From: Pseudomonadota bacterium
GTDB taxonomy: Bacteria; Myxococcota_A; UBA796; UBA9615
Direction: 5' to 3'
Length of the DNA stretch: 64,000 nt
Assembly: GCA_024229515.1 (NCBI GenBank)
Contig: JAAESI010000010.1
Span: 1-64,000 of the forward strand
In this document: piece by piece, positions 12,169 to 52,515 of the stretch
How the letters are laid out: every line of letters starts with the position of its first letter
How positions within the stretch are numbered: position 1 is the first letter of the stretch
The notes under the pieces: generated by a model
Database searches by the model: none
The model's input: only the letters and a program-made list of their open reading frames with translations
What the model was told of the DNA's origin: nothing
Made by a program: the position numbers and the translations under genes

Positions 12169-12244
12169 GGGTGCGTAGCTCAGTCTGGCAGAGCACACGA
12201 CTCGTAATCGTGACGTCACGGGTTCGACTCCCGTCGCACAACCA
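12169..12244 (+). tRNA. tRNA-Thr (anticodon CGT)
   Basis: D-arm GCTCAGTCTGGCAGAGC, anticodon stem CACGA/TCGTG with loop CTCGTAA, T-arm ACGGG-TTCGACT-CCCGT. The acceptor stem GGGTGCG/CGCACAA has two terminal G-A mismatches. Confidence 0.55.
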
Positions 12245-14362: not shown

Positions 14363-16171
14363 TCAGCAGCAATGGCCGCCGTGCCCGCAACCATGCCCGT
14401 GCCCGTCCTCATCCTCGTGCTCATGGTCGTGGTCGTGGTCGTGGTCGTGGTCCAGCCCCTGGGCCAGGACCTGCCCAAAGAAGCCACGCGGCCCCTGGCG
14501 GCCCAGCGACAGGGCGCACACCACCACCAGGAGGGCCAGCGCGACGTAGTGCAGTTGGCTGTGCTCGTGGCCCCCCACGGAGAACGCGCCGCCCCCGATG
14601 TCGGGGAAGAAGCCGTTGACGGCCAGGCCGGCCGTGACGCAGGCGCCGAGCATCGCGGCCCCGAAGGCGACGGCGACGCTCCGGCCGTGCAGCGCGCTGA
14701 GCACGCCGAAAGTGGTCACGTTGGTCGCCGGTCCGCTGAGCAGCAGTGCGATCCCGGCGCCCGGCGAGATCCCGCCCGCCACCAGCACCGCCACCAGGGG
14801 CGTGGCCCCGGAAGCACAGACGTACAGGGGCATGCCGATCACCGCGAAGACGAGCACCTCCCAGCCGTCCCCGAGCTGCTGAAGCCAGCCCGCGTCCAGC
14901 ACCGGCTGCATCGCCGCGGCGACCACGAGTCCGGCGAGGATCCACGGTGCGGTCTCGTCCACGACCTCGCCGTAGCCGGTGCGGAACGCCTGCCGGACCC
15001 GCTCCCCGAAGCTCGCCGGGGAGGACTCCGCCAGAGGGTCCTTCACGTGCCCCGGAACCTCCGGGAGCCCGCGTGAAGCGGCCCACTTGCCGACGATCGC
15101 GCCGACGGCGAGGGCGACCGCGGCGGCGGCGACGACCCGGGCCAGCGTCATCGACGGACCCAGCAGCGGGACGGACAGCAGGACCGCGTCCAGCCCCAGT
15201 TCGGGGGTGGCCACGAGGAACGCCATCGCCGCCGCGGGGGGCGCCCCCTGGACCACGAGGCTCCGGTAGACCGGGACCACCCCGCAAGAACAGATCGGCA
15301 GCGGGAGACCGAAGGCGACGCCGCGCCCGGCCTGGGACAGCGAGCCGCCGCGCCCCATCCAGCCGACCGTCGCCTTGGGGAGGAACGCTTGCACCGCCCC
15401 CGCCGCCGCGTACGCGAACAGCAGCGCCGGCGCGCTCTCCAGGGACAGCTCCAGCAAGCGGCCCCAGAAGGCGGCGTCGTCGTCGCCACGCTGGCGGTGC
15501 AGGAACAGGAGCAGCAGCGCCCCCATCGCGGCCCCGATGGCAGCGTCGGCGCGGCCGAAGCGGGGCCCCTCCCCCTCCGCCACGGGGTGCGGCCGGTGCA
15601 GGACGACGTGAAGCAGCGAGCCGGCCACCAGCGCGTACACGAGCCCCATCGCGGGGGCCTCCAGCGCGCCCGCGGCGGCGCCTCCGAGGAAGAAGCCAGC
15701 CACGGTCGCCACCGCGATCGCCCCCAGGGCGCCGGCGGCCGCGCGGGTCCCTCGGGTCGGCTGGATCAACCACCACAGGGTCAACCCCACGGGGAGCCGG
15801 TGCAGGACCACCGCGAGGCCCAACTCGGCGTGGTGCTCGGCCTCACCGGTCAGCGCCATGCCGTCGAAGAGGCCGTGGAGGCTGAGGGCGACCACGGCCA
15901 GCAGCAGCGCCGCCTCGTGCGCCTGACGCGCCGACTGCTCCAGCCGCTTCTCGATGGTCGAAGGTCCGACGAGTCCGATCGCCGCCGCCACGAGGGCGGC
16001 CCATCCGCTCGTCGCCACGACCTCGGGGAGCACGTGCAGCAGCACGAGGCCGCCGATGGCGACGTACACAAACCCGTCCAGGAGGCGCAGCGCCCAGGGC
16101 GAGCCGCTGGCCAACTTCAGAAGCGGGGGCCCGAACAGGAGTGCGGCGAGGCTGGCGATCAGCAGCGTCAT
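14363..16171 (-). CDS. ArsP/YraQ (UPF0718)-family permease with ZIP-like N-terminal extension and His/Asp-rich C-terminal tail
   Basis: LPLPICSCGVVP motif typical of ArsP/YraQ permeases. N-terminal HVLPEV...HHAELGLAVVLHRLPVGL resembles ZIP/ZupT motifs. C-terminus HDHDHDHDHEHEDEDGHGHGCGHGGHCC. Confidence 0.6.
   Translation of the reverse strand: MTLLIASLAALLFGPPLLKLASGSPWALRLLDGFVYVAIGGLVLLHVLPEVVATSGWAALVAAAIGLVGPSTIEKRLEQSARQAHEAALLLAVVALSLHGLFDGMALTGEAEHHAELGLAVVLHRLPVGLTLWWLIQPTRGTRAAAGALGAIAVATVAGFFLGGAAAGALEAPAMGLVYALVAGSLLHVVLHRPHPVAEGEGPRFGRADAAIGAAMGALLLLFLHRQRGDDDAAFWGRLLELSLESAPALLFAYAAAGAVQAFLPKATVGWMGRGGSLSQAGRGVAFGLPLPICSCGVVPVYRSLVVQGAPPAAAMAFLVATPELGLDAVLLSVPLLGPSMTLARVVAAAAVALAVGAIVGKWAASRGLPEVPGHVKDPLAESSPASFGERVRQAFRTGYGEVVDETAPWILAGLVVAAAMQPVLDAGWLQQLGDGWEVLVFAVIGMPLYVCASGATPLVAVLVAGGISPGAGIALLLSGPATNVTTFGVLSALHGRSVAVAFGAAMLGACVTAGLAVNGFFPDIGGGAFSVGGHEHSQLHYVALALLVVVCALSLGRQGPRGFFGQVLAQGLDHDHDHDHDHEHEDEDGHGHGCGHGGHCC
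14426..14452. repeat. (GTCGTG)n hexanucleotide tandem repeat encoding (HD)n
   Basis: gtcgtggtcgtggtcgtggtcgtggtc inside the 3' end of the permease gene. Confidence 0.7.
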
Positions 16172-16214
16172 CGGCGCGCACCGTAGTGGCGGGATCCCGC
16201 CTCGTCCAGCCGGC

Positions 16215-17867
16215 TCAGCGCTCCTGGATCAAGACGCCCGGGTTCAGCATCCCCGTGGGGTCGAGCTGGTCCTTCATCGCCCGAAGCACGTCGCCCATCG
16301 GCACGGGGCGCTGCCGCTCGTACCAGGGGCGGTGCAGTCGGCCGACCGCGTGGTGGTGCGTGATCGTCGCACCGTGCTCCATCAACACCTCGCTGGCGGT
16401 CTCCTTGATGGCGGCCCACTGGGCGATCTCGTCCCCCCGCCGGGCCGGCGCGATGAACGTGTAGTAGGGCGCCGGACCGTCGGGGTAGACGTGGGTGAAG
16501 CGGCAGGTCAGCCGACCGGCTCCGCAGACTTCCTTCATCGTCGCCCGCACCCGCTGGATGAGGGCCGCGTGGAGGGCTTCGAACCGGTCCCAGGTGATGG
16601 CGGTCTCGAAGGTGTCGGCGATGATTCCGACGCTCAGGAGCACGTCCCGGAGGTAGGGACCGCCGAAGAAGGCGTCTCGCCAGGAGCCCGCCGCGCCGCC
16701 GTCCCGGCCCCCTTCGCCGTCATCGCGATGCTGCGGACCCGCGGGGCAGGTGCCGCCGTGCGCCTCCGCGATCGCGAGGGCGCGGACCAGCCGCTCGGCC
16801 TGGGCGTGGTCGGCTGACTCGAACCCCAGCAGCAGCACCGTGGAGCCGTCCGTGGTGACCTGGTTCAGCATCGCCTCCCGGGCGTCCAGCACGCGGCAGT
16901 TGGCGGGATCGAGGCCCGACTGCGCGATGAGGCGCGTCGCCTCCACGGCGTCCCCGAAGGCGGCGAACCGCACGTCCGCCTTGCTGCGGAAGCGGGGCTT
17001 TCGCTGGACCTTCATCCACGCCTCCGTCACCACCCCGAGGATGCCCTCGCTCCCCAGCACCATCCGGTCGGGGCTCGGGCCCGCGCCGGACCCGGGCAGG
17101 CGGCGGCTGGCCCACGCGCCCGCGGGGGTGACCATGCGCAAGGACTCCACGAGGTCGTCGATGTGGGTGCGCACGGTGGCGTAGTGCCCGCCCGCGCGGG
17201 TGACGATCATCCCGCCGAGGGTGGCGAACTCCCACGACTGCGGGAAGCACCGCAGGGTCAGCCCGTGAGCGGCCAACTGCTCGTTGATCCAGGGGCCGGT
17301 GGCGCCCGCTTGAAGCCGGGCCGCGAGCGAGTGCTCATCGACCTCCAGCAGCGCGTCCATGCGGCGCATGTCCAGGCTCACGGTGCCCGCCCAGGCGGGG
17401 CCCACGTCCGGCTCGGTGCCGCTGACGACGCTGGTGCCCCCTCCGAAGGGGATGCACGCGATCCCAGCCTCGGCGCACCACTGCAGCACCGCGACGACGT
17501 CGTGCTCGGTGCGCGGGTGGGCGACCACGTCCGGCGCGACCGCGTAGTCCCCGCGGAACCCCCGGATCAGATCCGGCCAGCTCTTGCCGTACGTGTGCAG
17601 CGCCCGCTCGCGCCGGTCGGTGGTGCAGATCGCCGCCACGTTGTCCGGGGGCACGATCCGCGGGGCCGGCATGGCCGCCTGGTCCAGGGGCACCGGCTCC
17701 TCGACCTCCTGGCCCGGGAACCCGAGCATCGACGAGGCCATCTCGGCCATCGGCGTGCGGGCCTCCCGATCGGGGAACTTGTCCGCCCAGCCCCACCCCC
17801 ACGTCGAGCGTGCTCGGGGGGCCAACGCCCCGGAATCGTTCGGGTCGGCAGGATTCCGGTCGATCAT
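16215..17867 (-). CDS. FAD-linked oxidase (alkyl-DHAP synthase / D-lactate dehydrogenase-like)
   Basis: N-terminal WGWGW motif, FAD-binding PCMH domain (IPFGGGTSVVSG), C-terminal ...HHAVGRLHRPW oxidase domain. Start chosen at MIDRN (ATG 17867); the longer ORF to 18107 overlaps prsW. Confidence 0.7.
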   Translation of the reverse strand: MIDRNPADPNDSGALAPRARSTWGWGWADKFPDREARTPMAEMASSMLGFPGQEVEEPVPLDQAAMPAPRIVPPDNVAAICTTDRRERALHTYGKSWPDLIRGFRGDYAVAPDVVAHPRTEHDVVAVLQWCAEAGIACIPFGGGTSVVSGTEPDVGPAWAGTVSLDMRRMDALLEVDEHSLAARLQAGATGPWINEQLAAHGLTLRCFPQSWEFATLGGMIVTRAGGHYATVRTHIDDLVESLRMVTPAGAWASRRLPGSGAGPSPDRMVLGSEGILGVVTEAWMKVQRKPRFRSKADVRFAAFGDAVEATRLIAQSGLDPANCRVLDAREAMLNQVTTDGSTVLLLGFESADHAQAERLVRALAIAEAHGGTCPAGPQHRDDGEGGRDGGAAGSWRDAFFGGPYLRDVLLSVGIIADTFETAITWDRFEALHAALIQRVRATMKEVCGAGRLTCRFTHVYPDGPAPYYTFIAPARRGDEIAQWAAIKETASEVLMEHGATITHHHAVGRLHRPWYERQRPVPMGDVLRAMKDQLDPTGMLNPGVLIQER

Positions 17868-30220: not shown

Positions 30221-30336
30221 GGTGGCGGAGGGTAACGCAAGGCGTAGCAACGCCGCGCAGCGACGGAGGCGCGTAGTCCCAAGGACGACGATGCAAGGCG
30301 CTCCGCGCCGAGAGGCGAAGCCCTCGAGAGCGCGTC

Positions 30337-30659
30337 CAGCGCCGCGCAGCGCCCCGAGGGGCGCGTAGTCGCCGAGGAAGCCCCGGGAGCTCGCGGAATG
30401 AGCAGATCCGCGACGTTTAAGCGGCTGCCCGACTTTGTACATCTCGGCTGCAACAGCCTTCCACTCCGAACCCGGTCGAAGCTCCAAGCGGTGCCCGCGC
30501 ATCGCTTGGAGTGCCCGGTGGTTCGGCGTGGCAGAGCATTGGCAGCGGGGGTGTACAACGGCCGGCAGCCGCTTAAACGTGGCTTGTGATCTCGGCCGCC
30601 TGACGATCCACGGAGCTTCCTTGGCGACTACGCGCGCTTGGGCGCGCTACGCGGCGCTG
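30337..30659. repeat. ~320-bp imperfect palindrome (foldback element) with perfect 17-bp inner arms
   Basis: Left half 30337-30495 aligns along its whole length with the reverse complement of 30500-30659. Perfect inner arms ACGTTTAAGCGGCTGCC (30414-30430 / 30564-30580). Outer arms cagcgccgcg[c/t]agcgc...gcgcgtagtcgcc. Centre ctccaagcg-gtgcccgcgcat-cgcttggag. Confidence 0.6.
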
Positions 30660-31803
30660 ATGCGTCTTGCTCCACCGCCGCGAGAGCCTCCGCGTGGACC
30701 GCCCACAGCGCCTCCATCACACGGGCGCCCACGGGCGTGAGCTCGCCCCGGTCCTGCACGATCGCCAGCGACTCGGCGTTCGTCTGAAGCACCTCCGCGC
30801 GCCGGCGCGCGAACTGCGGGGTTCGGCTCAACAGGTGGTCCTTTTCGCCCAACGCCTGGTGCAGCGCGGCCACCGGCACGAACGCGTGAGCGGCGAGCAG
30901 CACCCCCATGATCGGCCGCAGATCCGGACGCACCGGGGACGGCGACCACTCGGTGTGCCCATTGTTCAGCACCGGATCGAGCCACGTCAGGAGGTTCAGC
31001 TTGCCGTGCTGGGTCTCGTGCACGATCGCTTCGGCCAGCGTCAGCGGATCGGGGTGCAGCGTCAGGTAGATGAGGCCCGGCGCCTCCCGGTACGACGCGC
31101 TGAGGTGCCGCTCGGGCTCGTACCCCACCGGCACCACGCGCAGGAGCGTGACCTCCAACTCGGCGTACAGATCAGGCAGTACGGCCTCGATTACGGCCAA
31201 TGCGTCGTTCAGCGCCTCGACCCATTCGGCGGCGTCCCGGCCCCCGAGGTCGAGGACGTTTCCCTGCTTGTCGGGGTGGGCCTCCACGTTCGCGAGCGGG
31301 TTGGTGTCGACAAGGCCCAGTTCCCCACGGACAAGGGGGCGCGAGGGCGTCAGCGCATCCAGATCTCCCAGCGCCAGGTGCCGGCCGGTCGAAAGCTCGA
31401 CGCCCACGCCGTCGCGATCGGCGACCACGGCGCGCAACGGCTCTGCGAATCGGTGGAACCCGGAGCTTCGAACCTCGGTGGTGGGCCCCCGCCACGACAA
31501 GCCGGCGTCCAGGTGAGGGGCGAGCGCCGCGAGCAGGTGGGGCACGCCCCGACGGAGACCGTCGCGCGCGGGCAGCGCGCCCGAAGCCGAGGCCAACAAC
31601 GGCACCAGAGCATCCAGGGTGCCGACGGCGTCCAGCAGCGCCTCGGGCCGGGTCCTCAGCAGCTTCGTCAGCGCGGTCTGCAGCCGAACCAGGTCCGGGA
31701 GCCCCGACGCACGGACCGACAGCAGGTGCCGCAGCGCCACCATGCGCACCTTGCGTCGCAGCCGAACGGCAACGGTGTCGCCGGGGGAAGGGAGGACCAG
31801 CAC
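30628..31803 (-). CDS. HEXXH-motif domain protein (aKG-HExxH-type peptide hydroxylase-like)
   Basis: LAEAIVHETQHGKLNLL (H-E-x-x-H); ~390 aa; divergent from a radical-SAM gene array, an association recorded for the TIGR04267-like HEXXH domain. Confidence 0.55.
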   Translation of the reverse strand: MLVLPSPGDTVAVRLRRKVRMVALRHLLSVRASGLPDLVRLQTALTKLLRTRPEALLDAVGTLDALVPLLASASGALPARDGLRRGVPHLLAALAPHLDAGLSWRGPTTEVRSSGFHRFAEPLRAVVADRDGVGVELSTGRHLALGDLDALTPSRPLVRGELGLVDTNPLANVEAHPDKQGNVLDLGGRDAAEWVEALNDALAVIEAVLPDLYAELEVTLLRVVPVGYEPERHLSASYREAPGLIYLTLHPDPLTLAEAIVHETQHGKLNLLTWLDPVLNNGHTEWSPSPVRPDLRPIMGVLLAAHAFVPVAALHQALGEKDHLLSRTPQFARRRAEVLQTNAESLAIVQDRGELTPVGARVMEALWAVHAEALAAVEQDASAPRSAPKRA

Positions 31804-31825
31804 CAGCGTCGTCTACCATGCCGCC

Positions 31826-32974
31826 GTGCTCGCCCCTTTGTCCGATGAGGTCTGGATCGACGTGACCGGCGCCCAACGCGCGGAGAACGCCCAACGCATC
31901 GTTGCCTTCGGCACCCCCCGCCCGGCCCTCGCCGATCTCGTGCGCCAGGCCCGCGAAGCCGACGGCACGCCGGTCCTGGGGGGAGGCGAGCCGACCCTGG
32001 GAAGCGACCTGCCCGACCTCGTCGCCGCGGTCAGCGAGGCGATCGGAAGCCAATGGGTGCTCGCCACCGACGGCCTCGCGCTGACCCAGCCGGGTCCCCT
32101 CGCCTCCCTCGCCCAGCGCGGTCTGACCACCCTCCGGGTGAGGCTCGTTTCGGCCCGGCCGGACGCCCACGACTGGTTCTACGGGCGCCCCGGAGCGACG
32201 AAGGCAGCCGTGCGCGCTCTCCGCACCGCCGCCGCCGCGGGCATCACGACGCAGATCGAAGTGCCGCTCATCCGCCCGACGGTAGACCACCTCGCCGAGA
32301 CCCTGGAGGTCGCCGCGCGCGTGAGCGCCTCCGCGGTGCTCGCCGTGCACTACGACCCCGGCCGGTTCCCCCGGGACGAGCAGGTGACCCTGACGCCGCG
32401 CCTCGGCCTGCTGGAGCAGCCGCTGACCGACACGGCGGCTGCCGCCCTGCGCCTCGGAGTCACCTTCGCGGTGGCGGACCTGCCCCAGTGCTTCCTCCCC
32501 GAAGGCGTCGCCGCCTGCCGTGTGCGCCAGAGCCGACCGACCCCGGCTGCCCCCTGCGGCCCGGACTGCCCGGGCGCCCCGACCTGCGTCGGCGTGCCGG
32601 AGGTCTACCGGTCGCTGTTCGGAAGCTCGGAGCTGCCCGCCGGCCCGCCGACCGACCTCGCAGAAGACGACTTCTCCGGGACGAGCCGCCAGATCCGCAT
32701 GCGCCTCGTCCGCCACGGCGAGCACGCGACCCACCTGCGGGTCACCGCGATCGACCACCCCGACGCTGCGGCCCTGCTCCGCGAGGCGCTCCGGCTGGGC
32801 TTCGCCCGCGTCGAGGTCGCCGCCGATCTCGCCCCCCTGGCGGCCTTCTCCGACGACGAACTGCACCGCCTTCGTCGACTCACGGCCTTGCGTCCGACCG
32901 GCCCCGTGCCGCCCGACCTGAGGGAGCGAATCGGCCGAATCGCTCCCCAGGTGGAGCTAGGGTCGACCTCATGA
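31826..32974 (+). CDS. Radical-SAM-fold paralogue lacking the CxxxCxxC triad (retains C-terminal Cys cluster)
   Basis: VLGGGEPTLGSDL (GGEP SAM-motif), SARPDAHDWFYGRPGATKAAVRAL parallels the SLHG..ELHD..G.PG(A/S)F motif of neighbouring rSAMs. No Cys in the first ~250 aa. C-terminal CFLPEGVAAC...CGPDCPGAPTC. GTG start inferred; translationally coupled (ATGA) to the next rSAM. Confidence 0.5.
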   Translation: MLAPLSDEVWIDVTGAQRAENAQRIVAFGTPRPALADLVRQAREADGTPVLGGGEPTLGSDLPDLVAAVSEAIGSQWVLATDGLALTQPGPLASLAQRGLTTLRVRLVSARPDAHDWFYGRPGATKAAVRALRTAAAAGITTQIEVPLIRPTVDHLAETLEVAARVSASAVLAVHYDPGRFPRDEQVTLTPRLGLLEQPLTDTAAAALRLGVTFAVADLPQCFLPEGVAACRVRQSRPTPAAPCGPDCPGAPTCVGVPEVYRSLFGSSELPAGPPTDLAEDDFSGTSRQIRMRLVRHGEHATHLRVTAIDHPDAAALLREALRLGFARVEVAADLAPLAAFSDDELHRLRRLTALRPTGPVPPDLRERIGRIAPQVELGSTS

Positions 32975-34716
32975 GCCGGCCTTTGCAGGAGGACATGCTC
33001 GAGCGGGAGCGGGTGGCCAACCGCGCCAAGCACTGGGTGCGGGCGGTGACGGCCTGCAACAGCCGGTGCCTGTTCTGCCTCGACAGCGACACGCCCCGGA
33101 ACCTCTTCCTGCCCGCCGAGGACGTCAAAGCCGACCTGCGCCGCGGCATCGAGGACAAAGGGGCGGACAAGGTGATCCTCAGCGGAGGGGAAGCCTCCCT
33201 GCACCCGGAGTTCCTCGACTTCATCCGCTACGGCAGGGAGATCGGCTACGACCGCGTGCAGACCGTGACCAACGGCTGGATGCTCGCCCAGGCAGACTTC
33301 TACGAAGAGGCGGTCCAGGCCGGGCTCGGCGAGATCACGTGGAGCCTGCACGGGCACACCGCCGAGCTGCACGACCACCTCACGGGCACCCCCGGCGCCT
33401 TCGACCGGATGGTCGCGGGCATCCGCCGCGCCGAGGCCGACCCGCGGATCATCAGCAACGTCGACGTGGTCATCAACAAGCAGAACGTGGGCGTGCTGGA
33501 CAAGGTCGTGGAGCTGGCGATGTCCCTGGGGGTGACCGAGTTCGACCTCCTGCACGTCATCCCCCAGGCGGCTGCGTTCGAGCATCGCGACGACCTGTTC
33601 TACGACCCCGCCGAGCACCTCGACGTGCTCCACAAGGTGTTCCGGCTGAACCGGCACCCGGGCTTCGTGATCTGGACGAACCGGTTCCCTGTGCCCTTCT
33701 TGGAGGGGCTCGAGGACCTGATCCAGGACCCCCACAAGATGCTCGATGAGGTGCACGGCCGCCGCTTTCAGGTGCGTCGCTACCTGGACGTCGGGCAGGG
33801 GTTGGACTGCCGTCAGCCGGAGCGCTGCGTGCACTGCTTCATCGAGCCCTTCTGCACGAGCACCGATCGCACGCTCGACCGAATCCATGCCGCCGGCTGG
33901 GAGGTCTGGTTCGGGGACGGTCCCCTCCCCTTCGGCGCGACCCGGCGAGGAGTGGCGGCCCCCTCGACGGACGCGCTGCCGGACGAGCGGCCGCTGTACG
34001 CCGAGGTCGAGGGCGTGGGGCCGGTGCCCGAAGGCGACGTCGTGCTCCGCGCCGAACGGGCCGAGCAGCTGGAGGCATGGGCGGGCTCGGTCGACCTGGA
34101 CGTGCAGCTGAACCGCGACACGGTGCCGTGGCTGCTGACGAACCGGGACCGGCTGGAACGCATGCGCATCCACCAGCCGTCGTGGTCTTCCCTGGAGCAG
34201 GCCGCCGCGCACGACGTGCGGGACCCGGCGCGGTTCTTCCTGCAGCTGGACCGCCCGATTCCGACCTCGGGCCTCGCGGCCTGCCAGGCGCCCGGGGCGA
34301 CGCTGGTGGAGCCTCGACCGATCCTGCGGTCGTCGCTGTTCGACGCGGGCACGGGGCGGCCGTCGGTGCCGGCCCTGGCCGAGGATCACGTCGCCGACGG
34401 CTACCGCGTCCACTCGCTCCGGTGCCGGACCTGCCGGGTGCGTGACCGCTGCGACGGCATTCACGTGAACATGGTTCGCGACCAGGGCCTGAAGCTGGCC
34501 CGCCCGCTGGTGGCGGGGGCCTGGCCCGACGAGGCGGACCGCCAGCTCACGAAGGCAGTCGCGCGCGTGAGGGACGGCCGGGAGCGGGTGCCGGTGGTGC
34601 CGTCGCTACCCGGCCACGACGCTCCGGCGGCGCCCCCGGAGGACCCCTTGGCGGTCCTGGCCCGGGACAAGGCGGAGCAGCGAGCGAAGCGCCGCCTCCA
34701 AATCCTGGACTCCTGA
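32971..34716 (+). CDS. Radical SAM protein (SPASM/twitch-like C-terminal Cys cluster), 581 aa
   Basis: CNSRCLFC triad, GGEASLHPEF, SLHGHTAELHDHLTGTPGAFDRMVAGI, C-terminal CRQPERCVHCFIEPFC; long extra C-terminal domain. Confidence 0.75.
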   Translation: MSRPLQEDMLERERVANRAKHWVRAVTACNSRCLFCLDSDTPRNLFLPAEDVKADLRRGIEDKGADKVILSGGEASLHPEFLDFIRYGREIGYDRVQTVTNGWMLAQADFYEEAVQAGLGEITWSLHGHTAELHDHLTGTPGAFDRMVAGIRRAEADPRIISNVDVVINKQNVGVLDKVVELAMSLGVTEFDLLHVIPQAAAFEHRDDLFYDPAEHLDVLHKVFRLNRHPGFVIWTNRFPVPFLEGLEDLIQDPHKMLDEVHGRRFQVRRYLDVGQGLDCRQPERCVHCFIEPFCTSTDRTLDRIHAAGWEVWFGDGPLPFGATRRGVAAPSTDALPDERPLYAEVEGVGPVPEGDVVLRAERAEQLEAWAGSVDLDVQLNRDTVPWLLTNRDRLERMRIHQPSWSSLEQAAAHDVRDPARFFLQLDRPIPTSGLAACQAPGATLVEPRPILRSSLFDAGTGRPSVPALAEDHVADGYRVHSLRCRTCRVRDRCDGIHVNMVRDQGLKLARPLVAGAWPDEADRQLTKAVARVRDGRERVPVVPSLPGHDAPAAPPEDPLAVLARDKAEQRAKRRLQILDS

Positions 34717-34719
34717 CCG

Positions 34720-35757
34720 ATGGCCAACCTCGGCTACGTGCAGCTGACCCGCGACTGCTACCAGGGCTGTCGGTTCTGCTCGAACCCGCCCACCGGCGTG
34801 GAACTCACAGAACCCCAGATGCGCACCGAAATCGACCGCATGGCGGAGCTCGGCTACGACGGGATCATCCTCACGGGGGGCGAACCATCGACTTCGCCGC
34901 TGCTGTTCCCCGCCCTCGCTCACGCCACCTCACGGGGCCTCCGCAACCGGATGATCACCAACGGACAAAGGCTAGCGGAGCGCGACTTCTTCGCGCGGTG
35001 CGTCGACGCGGGGTTGGAGCACGTCCACCTGAGCCTGCACAGCCACCGGCGGGCGGTGCACGACTTCATCACGCGCTACCCGGGAGCGTTCGACAAACTC
35101 ACGGCCGCGCTGGAGCACGTGCCCCACGTCGGCATCACGGCCGACATCAACACGGTGATCTGCAGCTACAACGCCGACCACCTGGACGCCCTCGTCCGCT
35201 GGATTGTCACCACCTACCCCTACGTTCGGCACTTCGTCTGGAACAACATGGATCCGGACGGCAACCGTGCGGAGGAGAACCCCGACTGCATCGCCAAGCA
35301 CCGTGAGTTCCAGGTCAGCCTGCACCGGGCGATGGACTTCCTCCACGCCTCGGGCCGCACCTTCCGCGCCGAGCGAGTGCCCCTGTGCTTCATGAAGGAG
35401 TTCGCCTGGGCCTCCACCGAGACCCGCAAGATCGTCAAAGAAGAGGAGCGCTGCATCACGTTCCTGGACGGCAAGGGGTTCGTGCGCCAGCGGCAGTTCC
35501 TCCACGGCAAGGGGGACGCCTGCGAGGTCTGCCGCTGGGACCCGATCTGCGCGGGCATGTTCTCGATGGCGAAGACGTTCGACGAGCGGGAGCAGTCGCC
35601 GATCTTCGACGACCCCGATCCGGTCATCCGCGCGGTGTTGGGGAGGGAGCCCGAGCCGGCCCTGAAGGAGCGGATCCGGGCGCGTCGGGGGCAGCGCTCG
35701 ACGACCGAGCAGCCGGACAAAAACACCCGTACTCACGCACGGTTGAAGGTTCTCTGA
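34720..35757 (+). CDS. Radical SAM protein, 345 aa
   Basis: CYQGCRFC triad 12 aa from N-terminus, GGEPSTSP, SLHSHRRAVHDFITRYPGAFDKL, C-terminal CEVCRWDPIC. Confidence 0.75.
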   Translation: MANLGYVQLTRDCYQGCRFCSNPPTGVELTEPQMRTEIDRMAELGYDGIILTGGEPSTSPLLFPALAHATSRGLRNRMITNGQRLAERDFFARCVDAGLEHVHLSLHSHRRAVHDFITRYPGAFDKLTAALEHVPHVGITADINTVICSYNADHLDALVRWIVTTYPYVRHFVWNNMDPDGNRAEENPDCIAKHREFQVSLHRAMDFLHASGRTFRAERVPLCFMKEFAWASTETRKIVKEEERCITFLDGKGFVRQRQFLHGKGDACEVCRWDPICAGMFSMAKTFDEREQSPIFDDPDPVIRAVLGREPEPALKERIRARRGQRSTTEQPDKNTRTHARLKVL

Positions 35758-35776: not shown

Positions 35777-36805
35777 CTAACTGTCCTCCAGCTGCCGGCG
35801 GCGTTGCGCCAGGCGGCTCGCGATCGCGTCATGCCCGTGGTCGGCAGCGCACTGCTCCGGCAGGGTCCCCGCGGGCCTGACGTCCCCGATGCCGAGCCGC
35901 TTCGACGCGCCCGTCGCCCCCCCGGATGGCACACGCGGGTCCGCACCCGCACGCAAGAGCAGCTCGACGATGTCGCGCCGTCCCCGTTCGGCCGCCAGGA
36001 ACACGGCGGTCTCCCCGACGATGTTGCGCCGGTCCAACGCCGCGCCGCCGGCGATGAGCGCTTCCAGCACCTCGGGCTCGCTGAAGTGCGCGGCCCGCAT
36101 CAGGAGCGTCCACCCGTGGGAGTTTCGCTCGTTGGGATCGCCTCCTCGAGCCAGCGCCTCTGTGACTTCGGCCCCGGATCTCAGCAGCAGGAGCGCGCCC
36201 AACTCGGAGGGCGGCGCCATCACGTCGGGCCGAATCCAGGGCAGGTCCCAGGGGCCGTCCAGCAGCGCGGGCTCCGGGCTGCTCGGCGGCGGCGGCGGCG
36301 GCGGCTCCCACCTACCCAGGTGAATGCTCAGCCGATGACGCTGGGCGAGGGCAAAGTCCCGGGCGAGTCGGGTGTAGAAGTCCCGCATCAGGGGCGCTTC
36401 GTCGAACGTCCGACCGATGCGCGCACAGTTGGTGCGGGCACGGCCGAGGCCCTGGACGAGCTGGCCATGGAACGGACTGGACCGAAGCTCCACCGTCGAG
36501 CGCCCGCGCCCCCGCCACCCCGCGAGGTGAATCGCCTCATCGACGAATTGGAAGAAGGCGTACGGCGCCGACCCGCCGATCGCATCGTAGGCCCTCAGGA
36601 CGAGGGCGGCCGACGCTCCGTCGAGGGTCCTCTCAACGACGCCGCCCTGCACCACGAACTCGATCACGGAGCGTGACGGAAGCACCTCGACGAAGCGCCT
36701 GCTGAGTCCCAATCCGGCGAACTGGCGGAGGTACCCGAGGGCGTCGTCGTCACTCAGGCCCAGGGGTGCGACAGCGAGGAGCCCCGCTCCATAGACATCA
36801 CCCAC
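35777..36805 (-). CDS. Ankyrin-repeat protein with N-terminal unknown domain
   Basis: C-terminal ANK repeats (GWTLLMRAAHFSEPEVLEALIAGGAALDRRNIVGETAVFLAAERGRRDIVELLLRAGADP); PPPPPPP linker. Confidence 0.7.
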   Translation of the reverse strand: MGDVYGAGLLAVAPLGLSDDDALGYLRQFAGLGLSRRFVEVLPSRSVIEFVVQGGVVERTLDGASAALVLRAYDAIGGSAPYAFFQFVDEAIHLAGWRGRGRSTVELRSSPFHGQLVQGLGRARTNCARIGRTFDEAPLMRDFYTRLARDFALAQRHRLSIHLGRWEPPPPPPPSSPEPALLDGPWDLPWIRPDVMAPPSELGALLLLRSGAEVTEALARGGDPNERNSHGWTLLMRAAHFSEPEVLEALIAGGAALDRRNIVGETAVFLAAERGRRDIVELLLRAGADPRVPSGGATGASKRLGIGDVRPAGTLPEQCAADHGHDAIASRLAQRRRQLEDS

Positions 36806-36814
36806 GGCGGAGCG

Positions 36815-37393
36815 TCAGATGCGGTCTTCGAACGGGCATCCCGCCCACGCCGCCAGCGCGGCGCCGGCATGCACGGCCCAGGATGAGTCGAAGAGGAGAT
36901 CGTTGCGGCTGTAGCCGATCATCGACTGGGCGGTGATGTTCATCTCGTAGGCGACATCCACGGTGGCGCCATCGTTCAGCTCGGCCTGGATCCCCCGCTC
37001 CACGGAGTCCTCGGCCGCGTACGAGACGATCTTCGCGATGTCACCGACGGCGAGTTCCCGCTTCATGCCGGGGCCGCAGCGGAGCACGCCACTGGATCCA
37101 TGGACCACCCGCCCCTCCTCGCCGTGCCACAGCGAGAAGCCGTCGCCACCCTCGCTCCAGAGAATGTCTCGCTCCCCGTCGTAGCCTCCGAGGGGAAGCC
37201 CGCGGGCCCGCAGTCGTTCACTCACGGACTTCCGCTGGGCCTCGGGGTGCCCTTCCCAGGCCAGCCGCTCGGGCTCGCCCGGTCCGACGTTGTAGACGCC
37301 GAGGATGGCCTGGTCTTCCCACGGCTCGACGTTCCACGCGAGGAGCTTGTCCCCGGCGGTCGCGAGCGCTTCTTCGACGGTCGGATCGGTCAC
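36815..37393 (-). CDS. Hypothetical protein (small ORF 3 downstream of giant gene)
   Basis: 192-aa ORF co-directional with and 10 nt from the upstream ORF; no known motif. Confidence 0.45.
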   Translation of the reverse strand: MTDPTVEEALATAGDKLLAWNVEPWEDQAILGVYNVGPGEPERLAWEGHPEAQRKSVSERLRARGLPLGGYDGERDILWSEGGDGFSLWHGEEGRVVHGSSGVLRCGPGMKRELAVGDIAKIVSYAAEDSVERGIQAELNDGATVDVAYEMNITAQSMIGYSRNDLLFDSSWAVHAGAALAAWAGCPFEDRI

Positions 37394-37402
37394 GGGCAGA
37401 GT

Positions 37403-38446
37403 CTACTGGGCATCGAGGGCCTGCTGCAGGACGGGAGTCCAGGACTTGCGTCGGTTGCGGGACAGCGCGAGCCACTTCTTGAGGGCGGGTCGGCCGACCT
37501 TCTCGTCGATCAGCGCAACTCCGGCGACGACGACGAGCTCATCACGGTCGAGTTCGCCGAGCGAGCTCAGGAGCTTGCCGACCGTCGCGGCCTTGCTCCG
37601 CACGATCTCTGGCGATCGCACCGCCAGTTCCCCTCCGTCGGTGGCGGCGAGCGCTTCCAGCACGTCGGGGTCGAAGTCCCGCGAGGGATCCGTGAGTGTG
37701 CGGAACGCGATGCTCCAGGCCCGAAGGTCGCCTTCATCCAGCTCACCTCGAACCAGGCTCAGCCGCCGCAGCACGGGCATGAGCAGGGTCCAGTTCCAGC
37801 GGTCGGTGCCCACCCGGATCGGCCAGGCCTGGTGCGGGTCCGCGCCCTCCTCCAGGAGTTCGAGGAGCGCCTCGAACGCCGGCGCCGCGCAGAAGCCCTG
37901 AAAGAAGAGGATCGCGGCTCCCACTACTTCGGGCTCAGGGGAACTCAACCGACGGCCCACGGCGTCTCCGAACGCCCTCCCCTCAGGCAGCCCAAGCATG
38001 CGTGAGTACAGACGTTTCGACCACTCGCCGGCGACTTCGCGGGCACGCGCTCCGGCAAGGTCCGGGACCCACCCGGCAAGCACGCGATCGGCGAGCTCAT
38101 CCCAGTCGGTGTCCCGGTCGACGGTCGCTCCATCAACGTCGACCGGGAGCGTCGCCGGGGCATGGCCGCGGCATCGCCAGGGGAGGTTCCGCTCGGTCTC
38201 GAAGGCGTCCGCCTCGTGGCCGGAGACGGCCTGATACAGCGGCCCTGTCCAGGACTCACACGAGCAGCGGTAGGTGCGGGTGGTTCCGACGAGCGCCCAG
38301 GTGACGGCCTCGCCGCAGGCGGTGCAACCCAACTGGTTGCAGCCGATGACGTCGAGCACGACGGGGTGGGCGTAGTCGGTCGGATCGTCGGGGAGTGGAA
38401 GCGTGCCGTCGACGACGTAGCCGCCGTGGTGGCAGTAGTGGCTCAT
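37403..38446 (-). CDS. Hypothetical protein with N-terminal Cys/His cluster (small ORF 2)
   Basis: Start MSHYCHHGG...GCNQLGCTACGE...YRCSCESW; ATGA overlap with upstream ORF; longer ORF to 38587 judged N-terminal over-extension. Confidence 0.45.
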   Translation of the reverse strand: MSHYCHHGGYVVDGTLPLPDDPTDYAHPVVLDVIGCNQLGCTACGEAVTWALVGTTRTYRCSCESWTGPLYQAVSGHEADAFETERNLPWRCRGHAPATLPVDVDGATVDRDTDWDELADRVLAGWVPDLAGARAREVAGEWSKRLYSRMLGLPEGRAFGDAVGRRLSSPEPEVVGAAILFFQGFCAAPAFEALLELLEEGADPHQAWPIRVGTDRWNWTLLMPVLRRLSLVRGELDEGDLRAWSIAFRTLTDPSRDFDPDVLEALAATDGGELAVRSPEIVRSKAATVGKLLSSLGELDRDELVVVAGVALIDEKVGRPALKKWLALSRNRRKSWTPVLQQALDAQ

Positions 38447-39240
38447 GCCGGCGCTTCGAGAGGAGAGCCCGCCGTCTCGAGCGTCCAGGCCTCCTGGATC
38501 CCCAGGCGGCGCCGAACCTCGTCGGGATCCGAAAGATCCTCGACCCATCGGAAGAACCACAATCCGTCGCGCTCGAAGCGGCGGCACTCGGGCGGCGTCG
38601 GAGCCTCGATGAGGCGAAGGCAGGCGGCGAGGTCGGCCTCGTAGGCAAGCCGCCCGGCAGGCGCCGTTCGGTGGAACTCGGGATCGAGCACGGTCAGGGC
38701 CGCGCCCATCCCCCAGCGGGTCTCGAATCGCGGGGGGGAAGGCCGCGGGTAGTCCAGATCAGGCAGCAACGCAGCTTGATCGCCCAGGGTGACCGTACCC
38801 GGCAGCGCGGCGCGAACCGCCAGCGTGAGTGCGACGCAGAGATCCACCACATCGCCGTTGAACTGCCGCCATTGCTCGGCCTTCAGGGTGTAGCTCAGGA
38901 AGAACTTGTCGTTTCCTCGACAGCGGGGATGGCTGCGTCGATCCCAGACTCCGACCCTCAGTCGAGTCCCCTTCCGCGCGCTCCGACCGAGGAAGAAGTT
39001 CGCTCCCGAATCGACCGTGAGCATCTCGGGCGCCGCGGCATCGCGAGCGAGCGCCTCCATGCTCGCGCCTCGGATTGGCGTGCCCGCGGTCGGGCCGAGT
39101 CCGCGGAACGGCAGCCCCAGCCCCGCGTTCTCGACGGCGGCGGCGATGCGCGGAAGTGCATCGGGCTCGAGCCACCAACCTTCGGCGGCGTCGGCCACCT
39201 CGAACGCGCGCAGCGTCAGCCCCAGTTGGAAATCGCTCAT
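38443..39240 (-). CDS. Hypothetical protein (small ORF 1, directly downstream of giant gene)
   Basis: 265-aa ORF beginning 18 nt after the giant gene stop; no known motif. Confidence 0.45.
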   Translation of the reverse strand: MSDFQLGLTLRAFEVADAAEGWWLEPDALPRIAAAVENAGLGLPFRGLGPTAGTPIRGASMEALARDAAAPEMLTVDSGANFFLGRSARKGTRLRVGVWDRRSHPRCRGNDKFFLSYTLKAEQWRQFNGDVVDLCVALTLAVRAALPGTVTLGDQAALLPDLDYPRPSPPRFETRWGMGAALTVLDPEFHRTAPAGRLAYEADLAACLRLIEAPTPPECRRFERDGLWFFRWVEDLSDPDEVRRRLGIQEAWTLETAGSPLEAPA

Positions 39241-39258
39241 CGGAGTGCAGGCAACTGG

Positions 39259-49412: not shown

Positions 49413-50417
49413 GTGACCGCCCCGGCCCCCCGCGCTCGTCAGCTCATCCTGACGGTCACGCGCGCCTGCAATCTCCGCTGCTCCTACTGCCCCACCGTCA
49501 AGGACGGGTTCCCTTCCCTCACGGTCGATGACGCCATCGCTGCCGTGCAGCTGTTCGTCGACCGCTACGGCGGAGGCGAGATCAAGCTGTTCGGGGGCGA
49601 GCCGCTGCTGGTCCCCGACGTCGTCGAGGCGGTGCTGGAGCAGACGGCGCGGATGCCCGCGATCACGCGCGTTCAGCTCAGCACCAACGGCCTCGGACTC
49701 GACGATGGTTGGCTCGACCGCCTCGCCGACCACCCCACCGCGGTGCTCCAGATCTCGATCGACGGAGACGAGTCGATCCACCAGCGGTTCCGCCGCAGCC
49801 TGCCCGGGATCCCCGCCTCGTACGCCCACTTGATGGGGCTGCAGGAGCGGCTCGTCGCCCAGCCCAGGCTCGTGGTCACCCAGACCATCGCGCCCGCCGC
49901 GGCCAACCGCGCCGCCGCTTCGTTCGAACACCTCCGCGGCCTCGGCTTCCGCCGATTCAACCTCCTGCCGGGCTACTACCTCGCGTGGAGCGCCCCCCAG
50001 TTGGCGCACCTGCGGACGGCGTTCGACGCGATCGGGGCGAGCCTGCGCGCCACCTGGGCCGAGGACGGCTACGTCTACCTCCGCAACCTGTTCACGCTGG
50101 CCCCGACGCCGTTCTTCAACACCGGGCTGGTGGTCGACAGCGACCGCACGATCCACCCCAGCAACGTCGGCCTGTCCGGCCAACTGGACGGACTTCGGGG
50201 GCAGACCCAGGTCGGCACGCTCGACGATCCCCCCACGCCCGCGGAACTGGACGCCGCCGGCGAGCGGGCCGCCGCTCTGGTCCAGGAGGCGCTCCCGACC
50301 CGCATCCTGGACTCGACCCGCTCCGCCGACGCCGAGCTCACGCGGCTCGTGCGATCCCTCTACCCGAGCTGGGCGGCGTGGCGGAAGCGGCGTCGCGCCT
50401 CCGGGAGCGCGGCGTGA
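49413..50417 (+). CDS. hxsC: Radical SAM maturase, HxsC-like
   Basis: CNLRCSYC triad 19 aa from N-terminus, GGEPLL, SIDGDESIHQRFR; 334 aa; assignment B vs C by size/order is inference. Confidence 0.7.
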   Translation: MTAPAPRARQLILTVTRACNLRCSYCPTVKDGFPSLTVDDAIAAVQLFVDRYGGGEIKLFGGEPLLVPDVVEAVLEQTARMPAITRVQLSTNGLGLDDGWLDRLADHPTAVLQISIDGDESIHQRFRRSLPGIPASYAHLMGLQERLVAQPRLVVTQTIAPAAANRAAASFEHLRGLGFRRFNLLPGYYLAWSAPQLAHLRTAFDAIGASLRATWAEDGYVYLRNLFTLAPTPFFNTGLVVDSDRTIHPSNVGLSGQLDGLRGQTQVGTLDDPPTPAELDAAGERAAALVQEALPTRILDSTRSADAELTRLVRSLYPSWAAWRKRRRASGSAA

Positions 50418-50488
50418 CCAAGATCCACGGGATCGGCGCCCCGGGCGGGCGCGATGAAACTCCCTGGATCGGTCCCGACGGCCAGGTC

Positions 50489-51397
50489 ATGCGGCGGCTC
50501 GAGCTGCACCTGACCTACACCTGCCCCGAGCGCTGCGCGTTCTGCTCCGAAGCGCACCGCATGAGCCGCTTCAAAGCGTTCCCCGTGACCTTCGGCCGCG
50601 TCGCCTCCGTGCTGCGAACTCACGCCTCACGCGGGGTCCGGGCGCTGCACATCACGGGCGGCGAACCAACCATCCACCCCCGCTTCCTCGACACCCTGAA
50701 GCTGGCCCGGAAGCTGGGCATGCGCACATCCGTGGGGACCATCGGCACGATGCTCCAGCGGCCGGCGTTTGCCGCCGAGGTGCTGCCGTTCCTGGACGAG
50801 GCGCTGTTCTCCCTCCACGGCCCCACCGCCGAGTTGCACGACGAGCTCGCGGGGCGGCCCGGCAGCTTCGACCAGGTGACCGCCGCGATCCGGACCTGCC
50901 GCTCGCTCGACCCCGAGTTCGGGGCGTTCGTGAACACCGTGCTGTGCCGCCGCAACCTCGATGCCCTCCCCGACACGCTGCGGCTGGCCGACTCGCTCGG
51001 CGCCTCCCTCATCATCGTCAGCAACACCACCCCCGAGGGCGACGGCTACGACCGGTTCGACGAGCTCGCCCCGCGACTGGACGAACTCACGGCCGCCATG
51101 GCGGCGCTGCCGACGGACGAGCTCAAAGCGACGCTGCGGATCTTCGGCGTGCCGATGTGCCTGCTGGGGGAGCACGCGATGCTCAGCAACGACATGCACT
51201 GGGACCCCCGGGTCACCGTCGAGTGGGCGTCGAAGCCGGGCAAGGTCGTGTTCGACGACTTCTTCAACTGGAACCCCGGCCGCAAGCGCGTGCACGTCGA
51301 GGCCTGCGCCTCCTGCTCCCGCAAGGGGCTGTGCCAGGGGGTGTGGGACCGGTACGCCGAGTTGTGGCCGGTGGACGCCCTGCAGGCGAAGCCGTGA
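50489..51397 (+). CDS. Third radical SAM protein in the Hxs locus (paralogue of the 32971 and 34720 rSAMs)
   Basis: MRRLELHLTYTCPERCAFC, GGEPTIHP, SLHGPTAELHDELAGRPGSFDQVTAAI, C-terminal CASCSRKGLCQGVWD; an alternative GTG start at 50414 overlaps hxsC stop. Confidence 0.7.
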   Translation: MRRLELHLTYTCPERCAFCSEAHRMSRFKAFPVTFGRVASVLRTHASRGVRALHITGGEPTIHPRFLDTLKLARKLGMRTSVGTIGTMLQRPAFAAEVLPFLDEALFSLHGPTAELHDELAGRPGSFDQVTAAIRTCRSLDPEFGAFVNTVLCRRNLDALPDTLRLADSLGASLIIVSNTTPEGDGYDRFDELAPRLDELTAAMAALPTDELKATLRIFGVPMCLLGEHAMLSNDMHWDPRVTVEWASKPGKVVFDDFFNWNPGRKRVHVEACASCSRKGLCQGVWDRYAELWPVDALQAKP

Positions 51398-52515
51398 GCC
51401 TCACCACGCTGGCCACGCCCTGCGCCCTCGTCGACCGGGATCGGGTGGACGCCAACACCGCCGCGATGGCAGCCCGGGCGGGGAAGCGAGGGGTCGCGCT
51501 GCGGCCTCACGTCAAGACGCACAAGTGCGCCGAGGCGGCCGCGTTGCAGGTGAGGGGGCACGACGGGGGCATCACCGCCTCGACCCTGGACGGCGCGATC
51601 TGGTTCGCCCAACGAGGGTTCGACGACGTGACCCTCGCGGTGCCGCTGGCGCCGGTGCGGGCCGAGGCAGCCGTGGTCGCAAGCGAAGGCATGAAGCGGC
51701 TGGGGCTGCTCATCGACTCAGACGCGGCCGTCGACGCGATCGAAGCCGCCGCCCGAGCCCGGGGGCGCATCGTTCCGGTGCAGTTGAAGGTCGACTGCGG
51801 CTACGGCCGCGCGGGGGTGAATCCCGAGGGAGACGACGGGCCGCGCCTGGCCCGGCGGCTCGCCGACAGCCCCCACATCGACTTCGAGGGCGTGCTCGCC
51901 CATGCCGGCCACAGCTACGCCTCCACGACCGTCGATGAGGTGGTGGCGATCGCGGAATCCGAGCGAGCCGTCACGGTCGGGTTCGCCGACCGCCTCCGCG
52001 CCGACGGCCTGGAGGTCCGCACCGTCAGCGTGGGCTCGACGCCGACCGCCGTGCACGGCCGCGACTGGACCGGAGTGACCGAGCTCCGCCCCGGCAACTA
52101 CGCCTTCTTCGACGCCTTCCAGGCAGGCATCGGCAGCTGCTCGACGGACGCCTGCGCGATGACGGTGCTGACGTCGGTAATCGGCGTGCACCCCGGCCGC
52201 AACCAGGTGCTGACGGACGCCGGCGCGCTGGGCCTGAGCAAGGACGCCGGCCCCCGCCACGTCGACCCCGACTGCGGGTACGGAGTCGTGCTCGATCTCG
52301 ACCGCCGTCCCCTCCCCCTCCGGGTCGTCGGTCTGAGCCAGGAGCACGGCGAACTCTCGGTGCTCGACCCCGTGGTCTTCGACACCCTGAAGGTGGGCTC
52401 GATGGTGCAGATCATCCCGAACCACAGCTGCCTCGCCGCGGCGCTCTACTCGCAGTACGTGGTCGTGGCGGGAGGCGAGATCGTCGACCGCTGGGAGCGC
52501 AGCCCCCGCCGCTAG
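51394..52515 (+). CDS. PLP-dependent D-serine dehydratase-like / D-threonine aldolase (DSD1, alanine-racemase fold)
   Basis: LRPHVKTHKC PLP-lysine motif, alanine-racemase-like N-domain, HSYAS; GTGA overlap with preceding rSAM. Confidence 0.7.
   Translation: MSLTTLATPCALVDRDRVDANTAAMAARAGKRGVALRPHVKTHKCAEAAALQVRGHDGGITASTLDGAIWFAQRGFDDVTLAVPLAPVRAEAAVVASEGMKRLGLLIDSDAAVDAIEAAARARGRIVPVQLKVDCGYGRAGVNPEGDDGPRLARRLADSPHIDFEGVLAHAGHSYASTTVDEVVAIAESERAVTVGFADRLRADGLEVRTVSVGSTPTAVHGRDWTGVTELRPGNYAFFDAFQAGIGSCSTDACAMTVLTSVIGVHPGRNQVLTDAGALGLSKDAGPRHVDPDCGYGVVLDLDRRPLPLRVVGLSQEHGELSVLDPVVFDTLKVGSMVQIIPNHSCLAAALYSQYVVVAGGEIVDRWERSPRR

Follow-up and report, generated by a model that had tools for sequence, protein, structure and literature searches.

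The HEXXH Gene and Its Divergent Radical SAM Array

The window analyzed here is a stretch of 64,000 nucleotides from contig JAAESI010000010.1 (assembly GCA_024229515.1, placed by GTDB in Myxococcota_A), and the subject of this work is a four-gene cassette at positions 30628–35757, together with a block of His-Xaa-Ser (Hxs) genes at 46318–51397 that lies ~10.5–11 kb away from it. The cassette comprises one gene for a protein with an HEXXH motif and three genes, here called A, B, and C, for proteins of the radical S-adenosylmethionine (rSAM) type. A preliminary description, made from the sequence, had placed the four genes at these coordinates in a divergent and translationally coupled arrangement, and this layout was confirmed. 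The gene for the HEXXH protein, a homolog of the α-ketoglutarate (aKG)-HExxH-type peptide hydroxylases, occupies 30628–31743 on the minus strand and encodes 371 amino acids from an ATG, or 391 from an upstream GTG at 31803, which is the start chosen by the Prokaryotic Genome Annotation Pipeline (PGAP). Divergent from it on the plus strand run A (31775–32974, 399 aa), an rSAM-fold protein without the cysteines of the SAM cluster, and the rSAM proteins B (32971–34716, 581 aa) and C (34720–35757, 345 aa). As read from the sequence, the stop codon of A and the start codon of B share an ATGA, and 3 nt separate the stop of B from the ATG of C. The spacing between the HEXXH gene and A is 22–31 bp, as set by the choice of start codon. 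PGAP starts A at 31826, which gives 382 aa, and the start codons of the HEXXH protein, A, and HxsB are uncertain. Because the window is ~70% G+C, real genes were chosen by third-position GC content and homology. The PGAP labels of the cassette genes are "radical SAM protein" or "hypothetical protein."

The HEXXH protein matches the full 177-position profile of TIGR04267 (aKG-HExxH-type peptide beta-hydroxylase) with 100.8 bits against a cutoff of 40 (E = 8.6e-29), and thus stands in the same family (TIGR04267/IPR026337) as ChlH/ChlBH, BpmH, and PflC/PosC. It carries the sequence AIVHETQHGKL, with HETQH at residues 242–246, and aligns to ChlH (PDB 8s5f) and to 22nu with E values of about 1e-6 via the motifs HExxHxKL and RxDLRPxG, which it shares with ChlH. 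In 28 orthologs, conservation of the HExxH and R-P-D-L-R-P motifs is 90% or higher. The profile score and the motif alignment bear out the preliminary view that this protein is of the type associated with peptides that are made by ribosomes and modified after translation (RiPPs). Published work on the aKG-HExxH family shows Fe(II)- and aKG-dependent hydroxylation of His, Asp, or Gln in RiPP precursors; the targets of ChlH are His and Asp, which it modifies once rSAM cyclization has taken place, and in two cases, PflC and PosC, oxidative backbone cleavage is found as well (PMC12636437). By family membership and active-site motifs, the window protein is most likely a peptide hydroxylase; since PflC and PosC also cleave the backbone oxidatively, hydroxylation is not the sole possible outcome. 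It resembles ChlH in length (371 aa compared with 368 aa) and in its adjoining rSAM genes. It differs from the known aKG-HExxH enzymes in being a distant, stand-alone protein that is unfused to an rSAM domain, and in its predicted substrate, which would be an HGS repeat where theirs is a triceptide or a Gln string.

Radical SAM-Type Proteins of the Cassette

A, B, and C are genuine paralogs, with pairwise identities of 25–31% (E values of 1e-7 to 1e-23), and all three match the Pfam family PF04055 (Radical_SAM) above its gathering score of 29.5 bits: A with 34.9 bits (E = 2e-8), B with 56.7 bits (4e-15), and C with 70.2 bits (3e-19). The further motifs that had been described as common to the three proteins are shared in part. 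GGEP is present in A, and B reads GGEA at this position. The S-x-H-G..HD..PG-(A/S)-F signature is altered in A to SARPDAHDW..GRPGAT, which lacks the S-x-H-G part and the final F. C-terminal Cys clusters are present in all three proteins, but their spacing is Cx3Cx5C in A and CxxCx5C in B and C, the latter spacing being found also in S6 and S7, two more paralogs encoded in the window. The Pfam SPASM domain gave no match at E ≤ 0.01, and these auxiliary-type C-terminal motifs are candidate cluster ligands.

None of the three proteins reaches an NCBIfam equivalog cutoff, and the nearest families are HxsC and HxsC4. Against HxsC4 (NF038332, cutoff 500 bits), which is the top NCBIfam match of B, S6, and S7, the scores are 95.5 bits for B, 87.3 for S6, 86.7 for S7, and 68.3 for C, so that even the best-matching proteins, at 87–96 bits, fall far short of membership, though a CxxCx5C auxiliary-type motif is present in them. 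Against HxsC (TIGR03977, cutoff 267.9 bits), C scores 96 bits over profile positions 29–261 of 292, followed by S7 (73), B (68), and S6 (56). C is the most HxsC-like protein of the window and also the most conserved member of the cassette, with 65–84% identity to its relatives in 67 loci. A placement in a cofactor-biosynthesis family of the MoaA/PqqE type, which the preliminary description had set against its own reading of the array as peptide maturases, finds no support because all such scores lie far below threshold. For MoaA, with cutoffs of 284–325 bits, they are 61 (B), 50 (C), and 27.6 (A), and for PqqE, with a cutoff of 381 bits, they are 41.5, 52.9, and 31, respectively.

B and C both contain an intact SAM-cluster motif, CNSRCLFC in B and CYQGCRFC in C. 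B in addition has a CxxCx5C auxiliary motif at residues 286–295 and a second one at 485–494, and its Cys residues are invariant in the homolog alignment. More than 900 homologs of B were found, and the best 120 listed are all full length with 55–86% identity. In the AlphaFold2 model of B, which has a predicted local distance difference test (pLDDT) score of 86.8, only the N-terminal rSAM core of ~220–260 residues matches solved enzymes, the best being BlsE, SkfB, and SuiB. For the rSAM core of A, too, both fold and sequence are best matched by Twitch/SPASM-type enzymes such as SkfB and BlsE. B differs from them in its remaining part, residues ~300–581, which has no counterpart among the 50 best PDB matches.

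A is distinguished by the absence of the CxxxCxxC motif; its first 238 residues contain no cysteine at all, though GGEP is kept. CxxxCxxC is missing from all 56 checked orthologs of A (called R2 in other genomes), while it is present in 65 of 65 C proteins, 81 of 82 B proteins, and 16 of 16 sequences of R1, an additional array member found in relatives. The cluster-less state is therefore selected rather than a product of decay. Despite the loss, the orthologs of A keep the fold and a DAHDW..PGA motif, and in longer orthologs a second, partial rSAM-like half lies downstream of the first. The AlphaFold2 model of A has a pLDDT of 71 overall and ~80–93 in its core, and it retrieves as top PDB matches SkfB and BlsE, the same rSAM enzymes that B retrieves; this model rests on a shallow alignment because a word-indexed homology search with A returned only seven proteins. 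A is predicted to keep the rSAM fold and to be unable to hold a SAM-cleaving cluster, and we propose that it may serve as a noncatalytic partner or scaffold of B. Other cluster-less rSAM-like proteins include the pseudo-SAM/SPASM proteins of Haloarchaea (TIGR04347). However, A scores only 33 bits against the TIGR04347 cutoff of 525, which makes it an independent case of cluster loss, and the second partial rSAM-like half of its longer orthologs is another difference. A is thus a well-supported natural case of a conserved cluster-less rSAM paralog, for which the role of a pseudoenzyme partner is proposed.

The Hxs Block and Its HxsA4-Type Precursor

The preliminary description had also pointed to an HGS-repeat HxsA 13 kb from the cassette and to further rSAM paralogs in the window, and both are present. 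The block opens with a gene on the plus strand (46318–46845) for a 175-aa protein with a twin-arginine-type (Tat) signal, here called TAT, which has no Pfam or NCBIfam match and lies upstream of HxsD. TAT adjoins HxsD in most Hxs-linked loci, and PW.LL.P, VH.C, and other residues are conserved among 44 sequences. The next gene encodes HxsD (46858–47289, plus strand; TIGR03976, 54.1 bits against a cutoff of 50). It is followed by a small HxsD-like open reading frame (ORF) of 71 aa (47286–47501, plus strand), which was read from the sequence and is absent from the gene calls of the assembly; it contains the motif ..LLDAFANHVLFET.. and overlaps both HxsD and HxsB by 4 bp. Homologs of 74–80 aa are called at the equivalent position in loci L084–L087, and tblastn matched the small ORF at this position in 36 loci. 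HxsB, an rSAM/SPASM maturase, is encoded at 47498–48967 on the plus strand (start codon inferred) and scores 488.6 bits against the TIGR03978 cutoff of 370. The 91-aa precursor at 48993–49268 (plus strand) belongs to the HxsA4 type (NF038313, 59.5 bits against a cutoff of 55).

Downstream, at the usual HxsC position, is Cx, a 334-aa rSAM protein (49413–50417, plus strand) that is not a TIGR03977 member. Its best NCBIfam match is PapB-like (95 bits), HxsC is not among its 25 best, and its homologs (120 best listed) show 57–83% identity. No protein of the window passes the cutoff for a true HxsC. S6 (50489–51397, plus strand, 302 aa) is a paralog of A, B, and C, 35% identical to B (E = 1e-25), and follows Cx in at least 17 loci. 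S7 (53822–55156, minus strand), a 444-aa rSAM paralog, has orthologs of 46–54% identity that adjoin the HEXXH gene in loci L021, L063, L061, and L025, and another in the L087 locus. Directly after S6, with its GTG start overlapping the S6 stop (GTGA), a gene at 51394–52515 encodes a pyridoxal phosphate (PLP) enzyme with Ala_racemase_N and D-ser_dehydrat domains, which is BhcC-like (3-hydroxy-D-aspartate aldolase) at 109 bits, under the cutoff. Since PLP enzymes of this kind have beta-hydroxy amino acids as substrates, such a gene would suit a pathway with a hydroxylase; it was not found beside S6 in other loci.

The window HxsA consists of a ~60-aa leader followed by HCS-(HGS)x8-HGQW. Peptides of the same HxsA4 type are found in about 38 loci and show the same plan, a leader of ~60 aa with an LPxLx(K/R)xPxxFL box and a DPxNxG..H(C/M/L)S junction, then 5–48 exact HGS repeats and a terminal HGQW or W. 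Locus L020 has two such precursors, at 13741–14133 and 14824–15477, with 18 and 41 HGS repeats.

The cassette itself contains no precursor ORF, as previously noted, and its intergenic gaps of 31, −4, 3, and 19 bp leave no space for one. In every locus, conserved, unmapped ORFs of high third-position GC lying no more than 3.5 kb from the cassette were clustered without bias, and HxsA was the only small peptide family to emerge. The other clusters were shadow ORFs of real genes and a large repeat protein that some lineages have inserted between B and C. The preliminary description had suggested an unannotated small precursor ORF in or near a palindrome beside the HEXXH gene, and this suggestion finds no support. 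The 407-bp gap downstream of the HEXXH gene (30221–30627) holds nine ORFs of at least 20 aa, none with an HxS or other repeat and none like anything conserved, and the region is unconserved in relatives. The palindrome, an imperfect one of 323 nt at 30337–30659, lies between the HEXXH stop and the start of an M28 peptidase gene, overlaps the last ~10 HEXXH codons, and is predicted to form a long hairpin (−217 kcal/mol, z = −12.3). Only one copy occurs in the window, the close relatives L004 and L078 lack it, and an Rfam scan of the whole window gave no match at this site. A terminator, a regulatory element, and a mobile-element remnant are all possibilities for it.

The Cassette Adjoins Hxs Genes in Most Related Loci

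A scan of one genome per GTDB species, seeded with B, yielded 80 loci, all from metagenome-assembled genomes mostly labeled Myxococcota, Deltaproteobacteria, Polyangiaceae, Sandaracinaceae, or Binatia; the loci were mapped by tblastn, and the gene bounds are hit edges. The typical cassette in these relatives has the HEXXH gene on the minus strand, divergent from R1, R2, B, and C. R1, an extra active-type rSAM of ~450–480 aa, comes first in the four-gene array of many relatives and is absent from the window and its nearest relatives; a search for an R1 ortholog in the window found only paralogs at 26–32% identity. R2 immediately precedes B in 48 of 56 loci, and C immediately follows it in 60 of 67. 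The HEXXH gene is upstream and divergent in 31 loci, and downstream on the same strand in 9, the Binatia type. Median identity to the window protein is 70% for C, 55% for B, 49% for the HEXXH protein, and 38% for R2.

These maps also bear on the earlier suggestion that the HxsA locus supplies the substrate. Sixty loci had sufficient flanking sequence to be informative, and in 48 of them the cassette is accompanied by HxsD and/or HxsB, with a median gap of 2.5 kb; in these it is contiguous with or near TAT, HxsD, HxsB, HxsA, Cx, and S6. In the Myxococcota-type arrangement the order is HEXXH | (R1) R2 B C, TAT, HxsD, D-like, HxsB, HxsA, Cx, S6, with the genes from the array onward on one strand, and it is seen in compact form in loci L033, L062, L064, L073, and L087. 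In the Binatia-type arrangement, one HxsD-HxsB pair stands on either side of R2-B-C and two more paralogs, HxsA is encoded upstream, and the HEXXH gene downstream. Within the window, the separation of ~11 kb between cassette and Hxs block is secondary, because in the closest relative, L078, this insertion likewise parts C from the TAT gene, and L004 has it after C (the fetched sequence ends within it). In different genomes, the S6 and S7 paralogs are interleaved with both the Hxs genes and the HEXXH gene. The association of cassette and Hxs genes is strong but not absolute.

Two kinds of additional genes were seen in these loci. In L057 (6293–8605) and other Binatia-type loci, a 770-aa protein encoded directly after C has a second rSAM domain (CPHKCIFC) fused to an S6-like rSAM domain, so that some lineages hold still more rSAM domains. 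In L009, L022, L024, and L029, a gene for a secreted protein of ~1200–1700 aa with immunoglobulin/cadherin-like repeats lies on the opposite strand between B and C.

A Probable Expanded His-Xaa-Ser System

We consider that the HEXXH gene and the A-B-C array are probably an accessory tailoring module of an expanded Hxs system, whose substrate would be the HxsA4-type peptide encoded at 48993–49268. Besides the synteny, this reading is favored because the window is without a true HxsC and its most HxsC-like protein, C, lies inside the cassette; because B, S6, and S7 are closest to HxsC4, which is paired by name with HxsA4 in NCBIfam; and because S6 and S7 are interleaved with the Hxs genes and the HEXXH gene. 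The window as a whole is best read as encoding an expanded system predicted to comprise seven rSAM-fold genes and the hydroxylase homolog.

We infer the identity of the substrate, the order of steps, the chemistry, and the localization, with the mechanistic steps taken from knowledge of the families. HxsB, with HxsD and the small HxsD-like protein, would bind the leader and start radical chemistry on the repeats. The rSAM proteins with auxiliary clusters (C, B, S6, and S7, and R1 in other genomes) would then add further radical modifications to the His, Gly, or Ser of each repeat, with A acting as a noncatalytic partner or scaffold for B, to which its gene is translationally coupled. The aKG-HExxH enzyme may hydroxylate the modified peptide at a late stage, the His beta-carbon being the likeliest site by analogy with ChlH. 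The product would probably be delivered to the periplasm, which is the predicted destination of the conserved Tat-signal protein also.

Several points weigh against assigning the cassette to HxsA in this way. The evidence for the link is of one kind, synteny, and it comes from loci that were seeded with B and drawn entirely from metagenome-assembled genomes. Twelve loci that extend 5 kb or more to either side of the cassette are without Hxs genes, and in a B-independent set seeded with Cx (five loci, four of them readable) the cassette is adjacent in one and ~9 kb away in one, while the other two readable loci have no cassette within 10 kb. The cassette and the Hxs block can therefore be separated, as in the window. 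In addition, nonpeptide substrates are known for some of the nearest solved relatives of B and A (BlsE and GDGT-MAS), RiPP tailoring enzymes do not usually show identities as high as 55–84%, which would suit cofactor-type or housekeeping chemistry as well, and binding between A and B is a prediction.

This separability, like the lack of a precursor gene within the cluster and the few loci in which B stands alone (e.g., L011 and L043), would be expected if the cassette formed a separate RiPP pathway with its own precursor elsewhere in the genome and merely tended to adjoin Hxs genes. Such an arrangement is improbable, since no second conserved small ORF was found beside the cassette in a set of at least 80 loci, adjacency to Hxs genes is kept across two very different gene orders in two phyla, and S6 and S7 are interspersed with the Hxs genes and the HEXXH gene. 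rSAM maturases are also known to install a cross-link or cofactor in proteins, as in quinohemoprotein amine dehydrogenase or sulfatases, and the cassette might mature a protein in this manner, with the Tat-exported 175-aa protein as an example of a target. The Tat-signal protein is linked as tightly as HxsD is and has conserved His and Cys residues, Tat export suits a protein whose folding or modification takes place in the cytoplasm, and the enzymes are highly conserved. However, neither a repeat nor an obvious target motif is present in the Tat protein, which in Binatia-type loci is located apart, on the other strand and near HxsA, and the HxsA4-type peptides keep the leader-plus-core architecture of RiPPs; we regard protein maturation as a quite unlikely role. 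Least probable of all is a role of B and C in cofactor-like or membrane chemistry, with a small molecule or lipid as the substrate and no relation to peptide modification, because, despite their high conservation, vertical-looking distribution, and nearest solved structures that include the nucleoside decarboxylase BlsE and GDGT-MAS, cofactor and lipid family cutoffs are unapproached (MoaA, 61 against 325; PqqE, 41.5 against 381; Tes, 17.5 against 450), the HEXXH family members characterized so far all act on peptides, and the synteny with Hxs genes is consistent.

If the cassette does tailor HxsA4-type peptides, its biological role might, by analogy with the E. coli system described below, be that of an envelope-level antiphage barrier, an assignment that we make tentatively and with considerable doubt; metal binding or another function in the periplasm has an equal claim. 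PADLOC returned only weak, superfamily-level pVip matches (22–64 bits) and no defense-system assignment, its library predating the HXS paper. A bolder and rather unlikely possibility is that, in Myxococcota and Binatia, six to eight rSAM-fold proteins and the aKG-HExxH oxygenase together turn every HGS unit, of which a precursor has 5–48, into a new cross-linked or heterocyclic unit, with the cluster-less paralog as an obligate noncatalytic subunit; the product would be a modified polymer templated by the ribosome, or each precursor would give many copies of a single small product. An assembly line of six to eight rSAM proteins, if real, would represent chemistry and architecture without a described counterpart.

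Relation to Known HXS Systems

In E. coli, a four-gene HXS system keeps phage DNA from entering by means of a periplasmic HxsA that undergoes rSAM maturation, and HxsB, HxsC, and HxsD are needed for HxsA processing, periplasmic accumulation, and defense (PMC13128918). Processed E. coli HxsA carries a +8-Da modification whose structure is unsolved, in vitro reconstitution failed, and more than 99.8% of HXS systems consist of just four genes (PMC13128918). The window resembles the HxsD-HxsB-HxsC-HxsA systems of Gammaproteobacteria (Haft's TIGR03976–03979) in that its HxsB and HxsD pass the equivalog cutoffs and its precursor has tandem His-Xaa-Ser repeats, and rSAM-dependent maturation is expected here as well. 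In contrast to those systems, no window protein reaches the HxsC cutoff, and the order is not hxsD-B-C-A but TAT, HxsD, D-like, HxsB, HxsA, Cx, S6 plus the cassette. The precursors differ too: the window HxsA is a 91-aa leader-plus-(HGS)n peptide, whereas E. coli HxsA has ~214 aa, five repeats, and a peptidoglycan-binding domain. Further additions are the Tat-signal protein, four to five more rSAM-fold paralogs (one of them cluster-less), and the aKG-HExxH enzyme. Finally, the variant was found in Myxococcota and Binatia instead of Pseudomonadota.

Papers in the searchable library make no mention of HGS-repeat HxsA4 peptides, HxsC4, or this gene set, and the proposed expanded Hxs form is an undescribed variant outside what PMC13128918 describes. 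Hxs chemistry is unsolved, the sole experimental study having reported a +8-Da change of unsolved structure. The variant offers a simple, invariant (HGS)n core in 5–48 copies and a larger conserved enzyme set that includes a hydroxylase homolog with His-acting relatives, and hence mass-shift predictions that can be tested and a way into new radical chemistry on peptides. Should its role match that of E. coli HXS, envelope-level antiphage defense would extend to two more phyla. The synteny allows these genes to be annotated as one system.

Other Features of the Window

The 10.5-kb block inserted between the cassette and the Hxs genes (35777–46149, minus strand) encodes an ankyrin-repeat protein, a 2292-aa ORF with no Pfam match and a strong negative AT skew, and proteins of 192, 394, and ~265 aa without a family match; the 192-aa gene is duplicated in L004. 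Its layout resembles a large toxin gene followed by immunity-type genes. A tRNA gene at 12171–12239 is the only Rfam match in the window. At 14363–16228 on the minus strand, a gene encodes a multipass membrane protein with a His/Asp/Cys-rich tail (DHDHDHDHDHEHEDEDGHGHGCGHGGHCC), which suggests metal transport.

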